The notes under the pieces were generated by a model that did no database searches, was not told where the DNA came from, and saw only the letters and a list, made by a program, of their open reading frames with translations. This document shows, in pieces, positions 10,654-20,647 of a DNA stretch of 40,129 nucleotides. This DNA is from Spirochaetales bacterium (GTDB taxonomy: Bacteria > Spirochaetota > Spirochaetia > Sphaerochaetales > Sphaerochaetaceae). Numbering within the stretch: position 1 is the stretch's first letter; the number at the start of each line of letters is the position of its first letter. The stretch spans positions 1-40,129 of the forward strand of contig JAQYFM010000119.1 of assembly GCA_028723145.1 (NCBI GenBank), given 5' to 3'. A program made the translations under genes and the position numbers.

Positions 10654-11247
10654 TTATACTAAATGTAGGTTTGTGATAAGAGACTTATCAAATGCCATGA
10701 AAGCCAAAGCCATTAAACCTGCAGAGATAAATGCAATAGGAACACCTTTGTATGACTTTCTAACAGGAGTTAACTCAAGCTTTTCTCTAATGTTACTCAT
10801 TAAGACAATAGCAAGTGTAAAGCCAAGACCTGCTGCAAGACCTGCAAAGAAACTTTCAAGTAAGTTATAGCCATTATCAATATTTAAAATTGCAATACCA
10901 AGGACTGCACAGTTTGTTGTAATCAATGGTAAGAAGATACCAAGTGCCTTGTAAAGTGATGGAGTCATCTTTCTAATAACCATCTCAACGAGCTGTACTA
11001 ATGCAGCAATTACTAAAATGAATGCTACTGTCTTTAAATACTCAAGAGCAAAAGGTACAAGTAAGAAGTAATAAACCATGTAACATACAACTGATGCTAC
11101 AGCTGTAACGAATGTAACAGCCATACCCATACCAAGTGCAGATTCACTGTTCTTTGATACACCAATAAAAGGGCAAAGACCCATGAACTGAACTAAAATA
11201 AAGTTCTGAACAAAAACATAGGTAATGATAATTCCAATATAGCTCAT
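10654..11247 (-). CDS. rnfA: Rnf complex subunit A
   Basis: FMGLCPFIGVS, LGIFLPLITTNCAVLG; start moved to ATG 11247 (AGAGGGG SD, just after rnfE stop). Confidence 0.95.
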   Translation of the reverse strand: MSYIGIIITYVFVQNFILVQFMGLCPFIGVSKNSESALGMGMAVTFVTAVASVVCYMVYYFLLVPFALEYLKTVAFILVIAALVQLVEMVIRKMTPSLYKALGIFLPLITTNCAVLGIAILNIDNGYNLLESFFAGLAAGLGFTLAIVLMSNIREKLELTPVRKSYKGVPIAFISAGLMALAFMAFDKSLITNLHLV

Positions 11248-11248
11248 A

Positions 11249-11884
11249 TTAACCCCTCTTTGCCTTTCTATCACCCATCCAATTGAAGAGTGCCTTTAAG
11301 TAACCCATAACTAAGAGAGCACCTGCTGCAAGTGTCATGACTCTAATTGGAGAATCTTTTAAGCCTGGAACTGTAATAATAATTCTTGCACTCTCACTTA
11401 AGTTGAGAAGTGTAATTTGTCCAGCACCTAAAATCTCTCTAATTGCTGCAATTAATATAAGAGAAAGTGTGAAACCTACACCCATACCAATTGCATCTAA
11501 AGCAGAGTCAAGGACAGTATTTTTATTTGCAAATGCTTCTGCTCTTCCGAGGATAATACAGTTTACTACGATGAGTGGAAGGTACACACCGAGAGCTGAA
11601 TAAACAGCAGGTACATATGCATGCATTACCATCTCTACAATTGTTACAAATGAAGCGATGATAACGATGTAAGAAGGTATTCTAATTGAATCAGGAATAA
11701 CCTTTCTTAAGAGTGAAATGATGATATTTGAACAAAGGAGTACAAACATTACACCAGCACCCATACCTATTGCATTAAATACTTGAGTTGTGACACCTAA
11801 GGTAGGACACATACCCAACATAATAATGAATACAGGATTTTCCTTTAAAATTCCTTTTGTTAATTCTTTGGTATGTGACATCAA
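11249..11884 (-). CDS. rnfE: Rnf complex subunit E
   Basis: ENP..MLGMCPTLGVT, LPLIVVNCIILGRAEAFA. Confidence 0.95.
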   Translation of the reverse strand: MMSHTKELTKGILKENPVFIIMLGMCPTLGVTTQVFNAIGMGAGVMFVLLCSNIIISLLRKVIPDSIRIPSYIVIIASFVTIVEMVMHAYVPAVYSALGVYLPLIVVNCIILGRAEAFANKNTVLDSALDAIGMGVGFTLSLILIAAIREILGAGQITLLNLSESARIIITVPGLKDSPIRVMTLAAGALLVMGYLKALFNWMGDRKAKRG

Positions 11885-12426
11885 TTACCTCCTAGGCTCT
11901 TAACATATTCACAGCCATTATTAATTGCGGAAGAAACTCCAGTAAATGTAACTGTAGCACCAGAAACAAGTGAAGGATCTGCAAGGTCATTTTTACTAGT
12001 TGGAATTGGTTTATCCGCACCAAAGCCAACAAATTGTTGCATGTACCAGCTTTCCTCACTCTTCTTTCCAAGACCAGGAGTTTCACTGTTAGCCATCATC
12101 TTAGCTCCAATTAACTCACCACTAGTCTTATAAGAAGCAACTAAAGTAATAGGACCACCATAACCATTTGAGTTAATCTCAAGGACATAACCCATAATAG
12201 TTTTTCCATCAACGAGAGTAATTACATAGTTAACATTACCCTCACCATCTCTCTTTTCACCAAGGCTATAACCACCACTAATATCCATCAATGCAGCACT
12301 AGTCTCTTTTAGAGCATTTGCAGCAATCTGAGGTGCGGTAATAGCATTTACACCAGCAAGGAGAGCTGCTGATACAGCACAGATAGCAAAAAGAATTAAT
12401 GCAATTTTAATATACTGTTTCATCAC
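11881..12426 (-). CDS. rnfG: Rnf complex subunit G (FMN-binding)
   Basis: N-terminal anchor, GYGGPI, SETPGLG, VSGATVT flavinylation motif. Confidence 0.93.
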   Translation of the reverse strand: MMKQYIKIALILFAICAVSAALLAGVNAITAPQIAANALKETSAALMDISGGYSLGEKRDGEGNVNYVITLVDGKTIMGYVLEINSNGYGGPITLVASYKTSGELIGAKMMANSETPGLGKKSEESWYMQQFVGFGADKPIPTSKNDLADPSLVSGATVTFTGVSSAINNGCEYVKSLGGN

Positions 12427-15395
12427 TTCTTCTCCTTTACGCTCTTAACATATCCAAATTTCTTTGGCTTGATGTATCTATCAATTGTAGGACTAACTAT
12501 GTTCATCAAAATAATAGCAAGAGATGTTCCTTCAGGAAGAGATCCAAAGTATCTAAAGAGGAATGTGAAGAATCCACATCCGATTGCAAAGATTACTTGG
12601 CCCTTAATTGTAGTAGGTGTTGTAACCCAGTCAGTTGCCATAAAGAAGGCACCAAGCATTAAACCACCGGTAAATATTGGAGTTAATATCTCACCATTAA
12701 ATAATCCAGCACCAGATGGAATACCACCAAAGAGCCATGAAAGAATTGCAAATGAACCAATGTAAACAACAGGAATATGCCATGTAATAACACCTGCTGC
12801 TATTAAGAATATTCCACCTACGATTAATAGTAGTGCTGATACTTCACCAATACATCCACCTTGATTACCAAAGAATGCATCAATTGTATATGGTGAAATT
12901 CCAGTCTTCTCACTTAAGGATTGAGCAAACTGTGTTACTGGTACATTAACTGATGAGAGAACACTCTCCATATCACCCTTAGCGCCACCAACTAATGCTG
13001 TCTTATTTGCAGAAAGCATTGTTGCAGTTGATACTGTATCAACTCCAGAGTTTTCACTAATAAAGGCAGAAACTTCATATGCAAGAACACTGTTAATTAA
13101 GTCGTGAAGATTATCATTAATCTTCTCAGGAAGCTCAAATTCGTAGTAAGTTGCTCCAGCAAAGTGCTTAGCACCACCAAGAATATCTGGGTATTTAGCA
13201 ATAACGCTATCTGCCCATGCAGCCATCTGATCAACTGAAATAACACTAGTTGGGTAATCAACTGTGATGTACTTATTTGCGATAGATGTTGCACCATTAA
13301 AACCTGCAGCACTGTACTCTACACCTGTAATCTTAGTTGCAGAAGAAACTGCATCAACTAATACTACTTCTGGCTTCATCAAAGATGCTAATTCAGACTT
13401 GAAGAATGAAATAAGACCATCGTGGTAGTTATCATTAATCTTATTAGGGAATACGAATTCAATGTTACTATCATTGAAGAAGTAAGTTACACCTGCAAAT
13501 AATGAGCTATTTTCATTAATGATTCTATCTGCCCATTCACTCATTTCAGCTTGGCTAATTTCGCTTGTATTGTAATCAACTGTTACATACTTATTTGCAA
13601 TAGCAATTGAACCACCGTAACCACTAGAAGCAAAGGTTTGCTTTGTAGCACTTGAAACTACATCAACTGCATTTTTCTTGATAAGTTTAGAAAGCTCTTT
13701 TTCAATGATTGCATTAACAACATTATGGTAATCATCACCAAGTGTATCATAAAGCTCAAGCTTAATTGAACCATTAGAGAGAGTATAATCAACACCCTCA
13801 AAGAAGAGCATGTATTTATTTTCAAGACCTTCAACAAAGGATTCAATCATCTTATCTGAAATAATTGAAGCAGGATATGTAATTGTAATGTACTTATCTG
13901 TAATAGAAGATGATGCTTCATAACCAGATTGCTCAAAGCTTAAGTCTGTTGTCTTTGTTGCACCACTTGTTGCATCAACAATACCATTTACATAGTTACT
14001 AAGCTGTTCTTTGATAAAACTTCTATAGGTTTCATGCATTGACTCTTCTAGAGTATCTGGAAGCTCAATTTCGTAGTAGCCTCTACCAGCAAAATGAGTA
14101 GAACCTTCAAAGAGTTCACCATATTTATCTATAAGCTGAGTAGTAAAATCACTAAGCTCTGTTTCGCCCATACCTTCAGGATAGTCGATAGTAATGTATT
14201 GGTTAGTAATAGAAATCTTACCACCAAAACCATTATCGCCCTCACTAGTAATTGTTGCGGAAGAAACTGCATCTACCTCTTCTTCATCACCTCCACCAAT
14301 GAAAGCAGAAATTTCACTCTTTACTACAGAGTTATACATATCATGGAGGTTATCATTGATTTTATTTGGTAGAGCAAATTCATATCCACCACCCTTAGCA
14401 GCAAAATGCTTTGCACCACTAAAGAGTTCAGGATATTTTGCAATAACACTATCAGCCCAAAGAGCCATATCATCTAAAGAGAACTTATCTTCAGGATATG
14501 CGACGGTAATATATTTGTTTGCAATTGTAGTTTTACCATCAAAACCATTTGCTCTGTAGCTTACACCTGAAATCTTAGTTGCTGATGAAGTAGCATCTAC
14601 AACTACAGGAGCGTTATCGATATAGTTTGCAATCTCAGTTCTGATAATTGAAATAAGACCTGTATGATAAAGATCATTAATCTTACTAGGAGCTTCAAAC
14701 TCAAGAACACCACTATTATTGAAGAAATATGTATAGCCGTCAAAAATCTTAGGATACTTTGCAATTACAGCATCAGCCCAAGCTGCGATGTCCTGTTGAG
14801 TATATTCTTTAGGGAAATCGACCTGAATATACTTGTTTGCGATTATTATCATACCACCCTTACCATTGCTCTCAGCAGTAGTAAGTGTAGCAGCAGATAC
14901 ACTATCAGCTGGTGCTACAATAGCTTCTTCAACATCATGACTTGGAAGTACATAGTTCACTTCGAGAGCATGTGGAAGAGCAAATGTACTCATTAGTGTT
15001 GTAAAACTAAAGAATACAAATACACGACCTGCAAGAGCAGGGTTCATCCAGTTACATCCAAGGCCGCCAAATGTCCACTTTACAACAGCAATTGCAAAAA
15101 CACTTGCAATAATTGGTACATATAGAGGAACTGTTGATGGCATATTCATACCAATTAACAATCCTGTAACAAGTGCAGACCCATCAAAAATTGTCTTTTC
15201 TTTATTAATCAAACCTAATAGGTATTCTGTTAATACACAGGTAATAATTGAAACGAGTAAGACAATTAATGCACTAAGGCCGAAGGAATAAACACCCCAA
15301 AGAGCTGCAGGAAGTAATGCTGCAGTAACAAGTAACATACTTTTTGTAATTGAGTTACTTGTATGAATATGAGGACTTACAGAAACGGTTTTCAC
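12423..15395 (-). CDS. rnfD: Rnf complex subunit D with ~620-aa repeat insertion (990 aa)
   Basis: SPHIH, SALVTGLL, FGGLGCNWMNPALAGR, then insertion, then GCIGEVS, GGLMLGAFFMATD.VTTP, LPEG; GTG start overlaps rnfC TAG. Confidence 0.93.
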   Translation of the reverse strand: MKTVSVSPHIHTSNSITKSMLLVTAALLPAALWGVYSFGLSALIVLLVSIITCVLTEYLLGLINKEKTIFDGSALVTGLLIGMNMPSTVPLYVPIIASVFAIAVVKWTFGGLGCNWMNPALAGRVFVFFSFTTLMSTFALPHALEVNYVLPSHDVEEAIVAPADSVSAATLTTAESNGKGGMIIIANKYIQVDFPKEYTQQDIAAWADAVIAKYPKIFDGYTYFFNNSGVLEFEAPSKINDLYHTGLISIIRTEIANYIDNAPVVVDATSSATKISGVSYRANGFDGKTTIANKYITVAYPEDKFSLDDMALWADSVIAKYPELFSGAKHFAAKGGGYEFALPNKINDNLHDMYNSVVKSEISAFIGGGDEEEVDAVSSATITSEGDNGFGGKISITNQYITIDYPEGMGETELSDFTTQLIDKYGELFEGSTHFAGRGYYEIELPDTLEESMHETYRSFIKEQLSNYVNGIVDATSGATKTTDLSFEQSGYEASSSITDKYITITYPASIISDKMIESFVEGLENKYMLFFEGVDYTLSNGSIKLELYDTLGDDYHNVVNAIIEKELSKLIKKNAVDVVSSATKQTFASSGYGGSIAIANKYVTVDYNTSEISQAEMSEWADRIINENSSLFAGVTYFFNDSNIEFVFPNKINDNYHDGLISFFKSELASLMKPEVVLVDAVSSATKITGVEYSAAGFNGATSIANKYITVDYPTSVISVDQMAAWADSVIAKYPDILGGAKHFAGATYYEFELPEKINDNLHDLINSVLAYEVSAFISENSGVDTVSTATMLSANKTALVGGAKGDMESVLSSVNVPVTQFAQSLSEKTGISPYTIDAFFGNQGGCIGEVSALLLIVGGIFLIAAGVITWHIPVVYIGSFAILSWLFGGIPSGAGLFNGEILTPIFTGGLMLGAFFMATDWVTTPTTIKGQVIFAIGCGFFTFLFRYFGSLPEGTSLAIILMNIVSPTIDRYIKPKKFGYVKSVKEKK
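13020..14906 (-). repeat. Six tandem ~99-108 aa protein repeats inside rnfD, bounded by seven DxxS[SAGT]AT motifs
   Basis: Motifs DSVSAAT (aa164), DATSSAT (267), DAVSSAT (375), DATSGAT (474), DVVSSAT (578), DAVSSAT (681), DTVSTAT (786); shared I[AT][ND][KQ]Y[IV] and a His in every unit. Confidence 0.95.
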
Positions 15396-19296: not shown

Positions 19297-19902
19297 ATGA
19301 AAAAACTAACAGTATTACTATTAATAATACTTGCTATGCTCCCACTCTTTGCATATTCAGAAGAAGAGGAATATGGAACATACTCGTATTACAATATTTC
19401 AACTGGATATGGGGCACTATTATCATCAAATGCAAATTATTATACTTTGGATTTAGGTTGTACATTTAACTTCGCAGCGCTTAATAACACCTCTTCTTTT
19501 GGAATAGGTCTAGGAACACGCTGTGATTTTCTCTTAGGTCTAAACAGCTCAAATACTAAAAAATATGCTGGTGTTGATGTATTAGTTGGTCCATTTTTCC
19601 ATGTAGGCATTAATAGAGCTTTATCATTAAATATTACAGCAGGACCTCTTTTCTACACTTATTATGTAGATAACTTATCTAAAGAGCGCTATGCAATTGG
19701 ACCTGGGGTTGATGGAGCAATTACAATAACACCACCAACCTTTGATAATATTTCATTTAGCTTTGGCTCTTTAGTTGCCGCTGCTTTTAGCTTGAATAAT
19801 GATCCAACATCAATTTTTGTTGTTCCATATATTTCATTTAATATACATTTCAATCAGAGCTACTACACACCATATCCATATGGCGCACTAGTGATTTACT
19901 AG
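19297..19902 (+). CDS. Exported beta-rich protein, putative small outer-membrane beta-barrel (paralog 1)
   Basis: Signal peptide, alternating hydrophobic/Gly strands, aromatic C-terminus PYGALVIY. Confidence 0.6.
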   Translation: MKKLTVLLLIILAMLPLFAYSEEEEYGTYSYYNISTGYGALLSSNANYYTLDLGCTFNFAALNNTSSFGIGLGTRCDFLLGLNSSNTKKYAGVDVLVGPFFHVGINRALSLNITAGPLFYTYYVDNLSKERYAIGPGVDGAITITPPTFDNISFSFGSLVAAAFSLNNDPTSIFVVPYISFNIHFNQSYYTPYPYGALVIY

Positions 19903-19972: not shown

Positions 19973-20035
19973 GTACTAATTTGTATCCTTATATTAATAT
20001 TGTGTATTACTATATATATATAAGAGGTATTGCTA

Positions 20036-20647
20036 ATGAAAAAAATATTATGTGTCCTACTACTTTCACTATTAGTAATTTTACCTGTAGTAGCTGATGA
20101 TTTTTTTGATGATGACGATGATGATTTTTTCTCATATTCAAACATCACAACAGGCTATGGTGCTTTAGTTCAGTCAGGCAAAGTACTAAATAGCTTTGAT
20201 TTAGGATTTTCTTTTAATTTTGCAGGTATGAATAATTCACGAACACTTGGAATAGGACTAGGATCAAGATTTGATGTACTATTTGGAGTTGGAAATGGTG
20301 GAATTAATTCATATCTTTCAGTAGATGCTTTAATTGGACCTTTTTTCCACATCCCATTTAATAGAACTGTTGCTTTAAACTTAACAGTTGGACCATTCTT
20401 TAACTTCTATTCAACAGGAAGCTTATCAAGTGATGAACATGTATCAATCGGACCTGCCGTTGATTGCTCTGTTTCACTCACTCCACCAGGTTTTGATGGA
20501 ATTTCTTTTGGAATTGGTTCACTTTTTAGTGCAAACATTAGCTTAAAGGATGATCCAAATTCATTCTCATTTATCCCATATGTTGCATTTAATATCCAAT
20601 TCTCAGATTCATACTATCCACCATATGGTGCATTAGTAATTTATTAA
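20036..20647 (+). CDS. Exported beta-rich protein, putative small outer-membrane beta-barrel (paralog 2)
   Basis: ATG 20036 after AAGAGG; shares NI[ST]TGYGAL, DLG..FNFA, GIGLG.R.D.L.G, GPFFH, IGP.VD, TPP.FD.ISF, PYGALVIY with paralog 1. Confidence 0.6.
   Translation: MKKILCVLLLSLLVILPVVADDFFDDDDDDFFSYSNITTGYGALVQSGKVLNSFDLGFSFNFAGMNNSRTLGIGLGSRFDVLFGVGNGGINSYLSVDALIGPFFHIPFNRTVALNLTVGPFFNFYSTGSLSSDEHVSIGPAVDCSVSLTPPGFDGISFGIGSLFSANISLKDDPNSFSFIPYVAFNIQFSDSYYPPYGALVIY

Follow-up and report, generated by a model that had tools for sequence, protein, structure and literature searches.

A giant RnfD with seven flavinylation-like motifs in an rnf operon of a Spirochaetales bacterium

The Rnf complex is currently seen as a closed, U-shaped path that leads electrons from ferredoxin to nicotinamide adenine dinucleotide (NAD+). 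Its membrane subunit RnfD, like NqrB, carries one covalent flavin mononucleotide (FMN) in its canonical form (PMC12174285, Table 1). Here we describe a giant RnfD of 990 amino acids (aa), encoded in a stretch of 40,129 nucleotides from a Spirochaetales bacterium (assembly GCA_028723145.1, contig JAQYFM010000119.1), which we call the window. It shares its core, pocket residues and operon context with canonical proteins such as those of C. tetanomorphum (7ZC6), A. woodii (9ERI) and A. vinelandii (8AHX), and differs from them by an insert of about 620 aa that brings six extra flavinylation-like motifs.

Multi-flavinylated RnfG, defined by several FMN_bind domains, has been described as probably providing Rnf with a second exit (Meheust 2021, PMC8238504), and multi-FMN proteins have been modelled as beads on a string (Huang 2024, PMC11334425). 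Multi-flavinylated RnfG and multi-FMN_bind proteins (SaFMN3/CbFMN4, PMC10339131) likewise hold several sites for the flavin transferase ApbE on one extracytosolic chain, putative sites on a probably extracytosolic insert in the case of RnfD, with a proposed role as an exit from Rnf. In the multi-FMN_bind proteins, however, each site lies inside a PF04205 domain, on RnfG or on a separate protein, whereas those of the giant RnfD are bare linker motifs between unrelated domains of a polytopic subunit. PF04205 matches the giant RnfD in one stretch at 18.8 bits, below the cut-off of 22, and the repeat between the motifs belongs to another domain family; the definition of Meheust 2021, more than one PF04205 domain (PMC8238504), does not cover it. 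Since the motifs score under this cut-off, FMN_bind domain counts miss the giant RnfD, and we suggest that such counts undercount multi-flavin proteins. The giant RnfD most likely works like the multi-flavinylated RnfG branch, yet stands outside that class by its defining domain.

The same bare ApbE motif outside FMN_bind is found in FMN_red proteins with flavinylated tails (PMC11334425) and in the synthetic Flavin-tag (PMC12052999), which differ in having one to two sites, placed beside the same protein's flavin pocket, and no membrane ion pump. MmcA, the multiheme cytochrome of the Methanosarcina Rnf, is likewise a multi-cofactor extracytoplasmic extension of Rnf, but is heme-based and a separate subunit. 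While multi-flavin RnfG is already published, no RnfD or NqrB with several flavin sites was found in the literature searched, in which subscription papers were thinly covered and the supplements of PMC8238504 lay outside the search; to that extent the multi-site RnfD is new.

The giant RnfD, its insert and its motifs

The giant rnfD reading frame contains no N, and its product is a true RnfD. Both five-helix halves score above the family cut-offs, with PF03116 matching in two stretches (E 5.7e-104, 348 bits against a Pfam cut-off of 27.7) and TIGR01946 at 289.7 against 207. The core matches the three solved RnfDs named above in sequence and fold. Furthermore, R124, E851, G911, D922 and S958 align with Arg130, Glu185, Gly237, Asp248 and Ser284, residues that Vitt et al. 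2022 name around FMN and riboflavin in RnfD (PMC9588780), and the protein has both the FMN-threonine linker motif and these conserved pocket residues. The gene stands in a complete rnfCDGEAB operon, in which Pfam recognises RnfC, RnfG, two Rnf-Nqr membrane subunits and RnfB. The length of the protein, the seven motifs and the intact operon reported by an earlier, sequence-only reading of the window were all found again, at the positions collected in Table 1.

That reading had named an assembly artefact as one thing that would overturn it. The same seven-motif gene stands in four other species-level genomes at 74-83% identity (the relative at 75% carries the NCBI name Bullifex sp.), which rules out such an artefact, as do a single contig of run X3, a run outside those flagged as possible sources, that spans the whole gene, and the absence of assembly joints in all four public runs compared with the stretch. 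Public runs from 15 studies, mostly of pig gut, contain the stretch; Bullifex and Porcincola are pig-gut isolates (PMC7738495). Contigs from the RNA libraries X10 and X17 cover the insert, although contigs cannot show transcription, and a promoter scan stayed at chance level (29 versus 28.2).

The insert begins after the fifth helix, in the linker that joins the two five-helix halves, as judged by homology and by the AlphaFold helices, and the five predicted helices ahead of it match helices I-V of C. tetanomorphum RnfD. In that protein, the linker (residues 140-190) forms the extracellular cover of the FMN and is a weak binding site for RnfG (PMC9588780). The homology to this linker, the helix count, the acidic charge of the insert (90 D+E versus 42 K+R) and the occurrence of its repeat domain in signal-peptide proteins would place it outside the membrane. 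The insert therefore appears to sit in the extracytoplasmic linker just before T792, where the mobile RnfG docks, and the outward-facing loop proposed from the sequence agrees with the homology and the predicted helices.

The seven motifs share the form D-x-x-S-x-A-T, and their threonines follow one another at spacings of 103, 108, 99, 104, 103 and 105 residues. Motif 7 is the resident FMN site, since D786, A791 and T792 do not vary among 31 aligned RnfDs, long and short; the helix that follows it is the helix that follows the single site of short relatives. With six further copies upstream in the same chain, the proposal that a single site had been multiplied is borne out. Chance motifs can be excluded: when the protein was shuffled 10,000 times, the pattern D..[ST][GSAT]A[TS] was absent from 9604 of the shuffled sequences, present once in 390 and twice in six, and never more often, and no other open reading frame (ORF) of at least 100 aa in the genome holds more than one relaxed motif.

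The published ApbE consensus, D-x-x-[S/T]-G-A-[S/T] (PMC12052999), is matched exactly by one of the seven motifs and by all seven once the Gly is relaxed. The motif set read from the sequence is confirmed in number, whereas the textbook Gly is found only in DATSGAT. Over 50 motifs from eight proteins, the Gly position holds S 25 times, A 15, G seven and T three times, and single-site RnfDs carry non-Gly versions at the canonical place as well (for example DALASAT, DALSSAT and DAVSAAT). ApbE requires only a 7-residue peptide and functions in loops, and a Gly-to-Ala change keeps about 50% of flavinylation (PMC12052999); flavinylation has also been shown for motifs on an unstructured FMN_red tail (PMC11334425, section 6). 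Taken together, ApbE very probably loads FMN on the extra motifs. O-glycosylation, considered as another meaning of the motif, was dropped because the motif copies the canonical FMN site.

Conservation, repeat domains and spread

Across five orthologues, motifs 1-6 never change at their D, S, A or T (24/24 columns), with nonsynonymous differences per site (pN) of 0 and synonymous differences (pS) of 0.52-0.83, uncorrected. Elsewhere in the insert, 319/580 columns are invariant, and in the linker flanks 37/80. The five genomes are kin, and these counts are no formal test; synonymous sites are near saturation among them. The frozen positions are those of the ApbE consensus (PMC12052999) minus its Gly. 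In a quick tree of 24 units from five proteins, the repeat units cluster by position and not by genome, which excludes gene conversion as what keeps the motifs alike. As a whole, this pattern supports purifying selection on the extra motifs, as the sequence-only reading had supposed, and it had counted a lack of conservation in orthologues as fatal.

Between the motifs lie six homologous units of about 90 aa, mutually 28-65% identical. Where the earlier reading saw spacers that simply diverge, these are domains that are themselves selected (pN 0.08-0.24 versus pS 0.58-0.93). Each is predicted by AlphaFold to fold as three strands, a helix, two strands and a helix, and the extra Thr stands 2-3 residues ahead of the next domain's first strand in all six units, at the end of a low-confidence linker that runs 9-15 residues from helix end to Thr. 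The model as a whole reached a predicted template modelling score (pTM) of 0.40, with all seven motifs at or beside stretches with a predicted local distance difference test (pLDDT) below 50 and no fixed packing of the domains; its alignment is shallow (31 rows, 11 with the insert) and the flavin is not modelled. Since every motif lies in a low-confidence linker and no fixed packing is seen, a flexible arm fits better than a rigid wire; a fixed form of the electron wire suggested earlier finds no support in this model.

Searching with a profile of the six units gave 35 cluster representatives; 28 outside RnfD were judged true homologues (P0040 and P0043 included), and seven were dropped by eye. 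The 28 comprise signal-peptide proteins, a 5'-nucleotidase and outer-membrane-barrel proteins in which the domain precedes the barrel, with 1-5 copies each. Of 151 genomes, 15 showed the domain, and these fall in three genera of the family. The flavinylation motif is absent from all 36 other repeat-domain proteins scanned: the Thr column holds Thr in 36/36 RnfD units versus 1/86 other domains, and one His is invariant in 36/36 RnfD units and found in 0/86 others. From the order of strands and helices, this His could share a pole with the FMN-bearing Thr, while common descent could explain part of its invariance. Because the homologues are motif-free surface proteins, the repeat is most readily understood as an extracytoplasmic stalk domain that was co-opted. 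The same genome carries it without the motif at G000:C223:3181-5721, C186:2052-3545 and C143:6963-7988. This family of 5'-nucleotidases, barrel proteins and lipoproteins has no Pfam model; the repeat gave no usable match in the Atlas and none in Foldseek at E<=0.001, and its best Z of 8.8 against VIA came from generic alpha/beta sandwiches, not above the common range. These fold searches show neither a new fold nor an absence of relatives.

Among 19 genomes of the genus, the giant form occurs in five and a single site in all 12 others read, with G109 and G150 left out. A split rnfD match in G020 proved to be a contig break with a single site and no insert. A long RnfG-like frame in G150 (L047, G150:C181), with two RnfG domains and a multiheme cytochrome, is of a published Christensenellales type and probably contamination of a 3.6-Mb bin of 600 contigs. 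In other genera, all seven loci read (eight fetched) have a single site. The giant RnfDs form one clade with support of 99/99 among short relatives, which shows a single origin in one clade. Variants with five and with three motifs (P0007 and P0008, each a single record) were also found; P0007 lacks units 3-4, with the deletion at a motif.

The loop has also been multiplied elsewhere. Among 629 proteins of at least 444 aa that match a Lachnospiraceae-like RnfD, all 120 listed have 6-9 motifs in the same loop, 119 of them close variants of one lineage (Porcincola intestinalis or Lachnospiraceae by source name); the query, the motif-rich start of such an RnfD, biases the search to such matches. 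These arrays have bare, variable 22-aa spacers without the repeat domain and lie on a branch separate from the giant clade, consistent with independent multiplication of the same RnfD loop in Lachnospiraceae. The domain-spaced array in RnfD was seen solely in the giant-RnfD clade. A further RnfD loop (P0009) combines nine motifs with a beta-rich segment of about 100 aa.

ApbE, the proposed side exit and other explanations

The genome holds two copies of apbE. All 19 genomes of the genus have the gene, and the five carriers of the giant RnfD have a different type from all 14 others (best E 1e-45 to 1e-58 versus 1e-79 to 1e-90). The carrier type lies on a very long branch of a tree with four full-length rows, where its placement is unreliable; carriers share 72-81% identity in it, against 48% with a Bacillota ApbE and 31-39% with other genus members. 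Each apbE copy follows the gene for a secreted 333-aa protein in a two-gene cassette (G000:C157:225-2275, L001/L202, with apbE at 1238-2275; G000:C286:1966-3756, L002). The secreted protein has two motif-like ends, DLASSAT and DLVSSVT, both kept in the three other carrier loci inspected; searches for the two FMN_bind domains of a PplA-like carrier, each ending in a motif, gave weak leads. It occurs in 5/19 genomes of the genus, exactly those with the giant RnfD, and in weaker form in 7/11 genomes of one other genus, and its nearest named relatives outside Bullifex are from Clostridia at about 50%. These identity levels lead us to infer that the cassette was gained horizontally. The first copy converges on an operon for a FecCD-type ATP-binding cassette transporter, in the same order in the three other carrier loci inspected, which weakly hints at iron uptake.

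The reading that we prefer, to which we give slightly better than even chances, is that ApbE flavinylates the insert and that the resulting arm drains electrons from Rnf to periplasmic partners. FMN attached to the six extra motifs would form a flexible multi-FMN arm outside the membrane, acting as a side exit from the pump. The outer six FMNs would be fairly exposed and near -200 mV; the three-FMN protein SaFMN3 stands at -184 mV and free FMN at -207 mV (PMC10339131), NAD+ at -320 mV and ferredoxin at -420 mV (PMC12174285). The FMN of RnfG or RnfD, with electrons derived from ferredoxin or NADH, could reduce the arm downhill, and because the return to NAD+ would be uphill, an exit is more plausible than a capacitor. 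The repeat domains are estimated at about 3.5 nm from a 23-residue helix and, with 9-15 loose residues before each Thr, would form a swinging-arm chain, in which transfer would need flexing: each bead would flex and collide with the next, handing electrons along a path of up to roughly 20 nm until a periplasmic carrier would take them. For this carrier, the two-motif secreted protein whose gene neighbours the clade's own apbE is the strongest candidate, and ferric iron for uptake, oxygen or envelope redox repair are candidate final acceptors. If this is true, an arm on the linker that caps the RnfD FMN would turn Rnf into a junction from which gut anaerobes without multiheme cytochromes export electrons; no ORF above 150 aa in this genome has more than one CxxCH. 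Direct tests of whether multi-flavinylated proteins conduct electrons would be possible with this soluble insert, which occurs naturally with 3, 5 or 7 sites, and with the bare-spacer array of Porcincola intestinalis, a cultured species.

Several points weigh against such a side exit. The consensus Gly is missing from six of the seven motifs, and loop insertions are flavinylated less well than terminal tags (PMC12052999). The repeat domain has no match to a flavin-binding fold, so the flavins may be too distant for fast transfer, and an ungated exit at -200 mV would short-circuit the pump. The existence of 5- and 3-motif variants means that the length is not strictly fixed. The likeness of the secreted protein to FMN_bind is weak (Pfam none, NCBIfam none, PDB E 0.75, Atlas 0.84); its co-occurrence with the giant RnfD comes from one clade and hence counts as one event, and it was not found in four of four Lachnospiraceae genomes with a multi-motif RnfD. 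Finally, no secreted fumarate-reductase-like or Ndh2-like terminal reductase stood out in this 86% complete genome, where PF00890 gave 10 matches, one of them full-length (signal peptides not looked at), and an Ndh2-like query matched just a coenzyme A-disulfide-reductase-like gene.

This lack of a terminal acceptor in the PF00890 and Ndh2-like searches would suit an arm that needs no dedicated partner and takes up bursts of electrons close to the pump, as a local redox buffer, or reacts with O2 there, as an oxygen shield, as would the reoxidation of a reduced multi-FMN protein by O2 (PMC10339131) and the Lachnospiraceae arrays, whose bare, variable spacers come with no shared partner. We consider this unlikely, as six FMNs hold just 12 electrons, which at about -200 mV presumably could not go back to NAD+, and folded spacers with an invariant His exceed what a buffer needs. 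The invariant His, together with the constant distance of each Thr from the next strand, would rather speak for an ordered wire, in which each domain docks its FMN around that His and successive flavins come within tunnelling distance. Here the low pTM and the loose linkers argue the other way, weakly in view of the 11 insert rows and the lack of flavin in AlphaFold, and we rate the ordered wire as somewhat less probable than the buffer.

Motifs that arose as by-products of tandem duplication, unflavinylated or otherwise modified, on a stalk or tether taken from a surface protein would be in keeping with the motif-free surface proteins of the repeat family and with the motif as a natural duplication and deletion junction, as in P0007. 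Such a purely structural role is improbable, since exactly the D, S, A and T that ApbE recognises are frozen while adjacent linker residues drift, and since the motif has been multiplied independently without the domain in Lachnospiraceae. About equally improbable, or slightly more so, is a role in maturation, with the extra motifs giving avidity for the new divergent ApbE or storing covalent flavin. The carrier-specific ApbE type and the similar non-Gly motifs in the secreted neighbour of apbE would agree with it; the single-site RnfG, however, is unchanged in the same genomes, arrays recur across many unrelated electron-transfer proteins, and covalent FMN is not readily released, which speaks against a store.

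A wider version of the side exit is less likely than not in our view. It would have the co-opted stalk domain, with a His-based flavin dock, make RnfD a heme-free branch line that crosses the periplasm over about 20 nm and that arrived along with an ApbE and a carrier gained horizontally, and would see in it the most elaborate case of a bare 7-residue tag multiplied on outer loops of transmembrane electron conduits (RnfD, RnfG tails, PepSY_TM, Ndh2 and even chemoreceptors) and missed by domain-based surveys.

Feature positions and other multi-motif proteins

Table 1. Features of the rnf operon and of the giant RnfD (positions in the window).
Feature	Position	Strand	Basis
rnfC, 435 aa	15395..16702	-	Pfam Complex1_51K, RnfC_N, SLBB, Fer4
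giant rnfD, 990 aa; core aa1-140 and ~786-990	12423..15395	-	PF03116, TIGR01946; matches 7zc6_D, 9eri_D, 8ahx_D
rnfG, 181 aa; ordinary single FMN_bind domain with SGAT	11881..12426	-	Pfam
rnfE	11249..11884	-	PF02508
rnfA	10654..11274	-	PF02508
rnfB, 264 aa	9846..10640	-	Pfam FeS and Fer4
extra motif 1, DSVSAAT (T170)	14886..14906	-	sequence, conservation
extra motif 2, DATSSAT (T273)	14577..14597	-	sequence, conservation
extra motif 3, DAVSSAT (T381)	14253..14273	-	sequence, conservation
extra motif 4, DATSGAT (T480); sole exact match to published consensus	13956..13976	-	sequence, PMC12052999
extra motif 5, DVVSSAT (T584)	13644..13664	-	sequence, conservation
extra motif 6, DAVSSAT (T687)	13335..13355	-	sequence, conservation
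motif 7, DTVSTAT (T792); canonical RnfD FMN site	13020..13040	-	alignment of 31 RnfDs; helix after motif as in short relatives
repeat domain 1 (aa173-260); predicted three strands-helix-two strands-helix	14616..14879	-	AlphaFold; profile matches
repeat domain 2 (aa275-366)	14298..14573	-	AlphaFold; profile matches
repeat domain 3 (aa384-470)	13986..14246	-	AlphaFold; profile matches
repeat domain 4 (aa483-575)	13671..13949	-	AlphaFold; profile matches
repeat domain 5 (aa587-672)	13380..13637	-	AlphaFold; profile matches
repeat domain 6 (aa690-783); invariant His764	13047..13328	-	AlphaFold; alignment

The assignment of rnfE and rnfA, presumably correct, follows N-terminal motifs and gene order. 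Elsewhere in the window, 19297-19902 and 20030-20647 (+) encode two tandem paralogous secreted proteins of about 200 aa with alternating aromatic, strand-like sequence.

Scanning species genomes for places with three motifs close together, with one start codon choice and no shuffle control, gave 120 loci (about 140 estimated), with an in-frame ORF of two or more motifs at 103 of the 120. Pfam assigned 53 ORFs, chosen by eye, to RnfD (5), FMN_bind (4), PepSY_TM (3), FMN_red (7), PAS_10 alone (5), Pyr_redox_2 (11), chemoreceptors (3), four other families (one each) and no family (11). RnfD, FMN_bind, PepSY_TM, FMN_red, PAS_10 or membrane NADH-dehydrogenase-like proteins thus account for 35/53, and multiplication of the bare tag on redox proteins is therefore recurrent. 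An apbE lies within 2.5 kb at just 11 of 80 array loci, all in lactic acid bacteria, a weak test given the short flanks.

FMN_bind proteins whose tails carry additional bare motifs, bringing the count to 4-10 (L069, L091, L119, L146), presumably resemble RnfG. Pyr_redox_2 proteins of about 700 aa (L054, L059, L061-L063, L089, L098, L101, L115, L117, L120), presumably of an Ndh2/DoxX type, carry 3-6 motifs, which lie between membrane helices in the two inspected. PepSY_TM proteins of Bacteroidaceae (L058, L082, L126) hold 5-6 tandem motifs within a loop. In lactic acid bacteria, FMN_red/PAS_10 proteins (L060, L074, L077, L079-L081, L083) have 3-8 motifs, compared with the one to two published (PMC11334425). 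Three methyl-accepting chemoreceptors with a Cache domain (L065, L084, L099) show three tandem flavinylation-like motifs right after the sensor domain and are possibly redox-sensing receptors. A Spirochaetales ORF (L052:2305-3018) strings nine 7-residue motifs head to tail without a spacer before it runs into an N gap, and a Bacillota metagenome-assembled genome encodes an RnfD-RnfG fusion with three motifs (L056:1015-2790).

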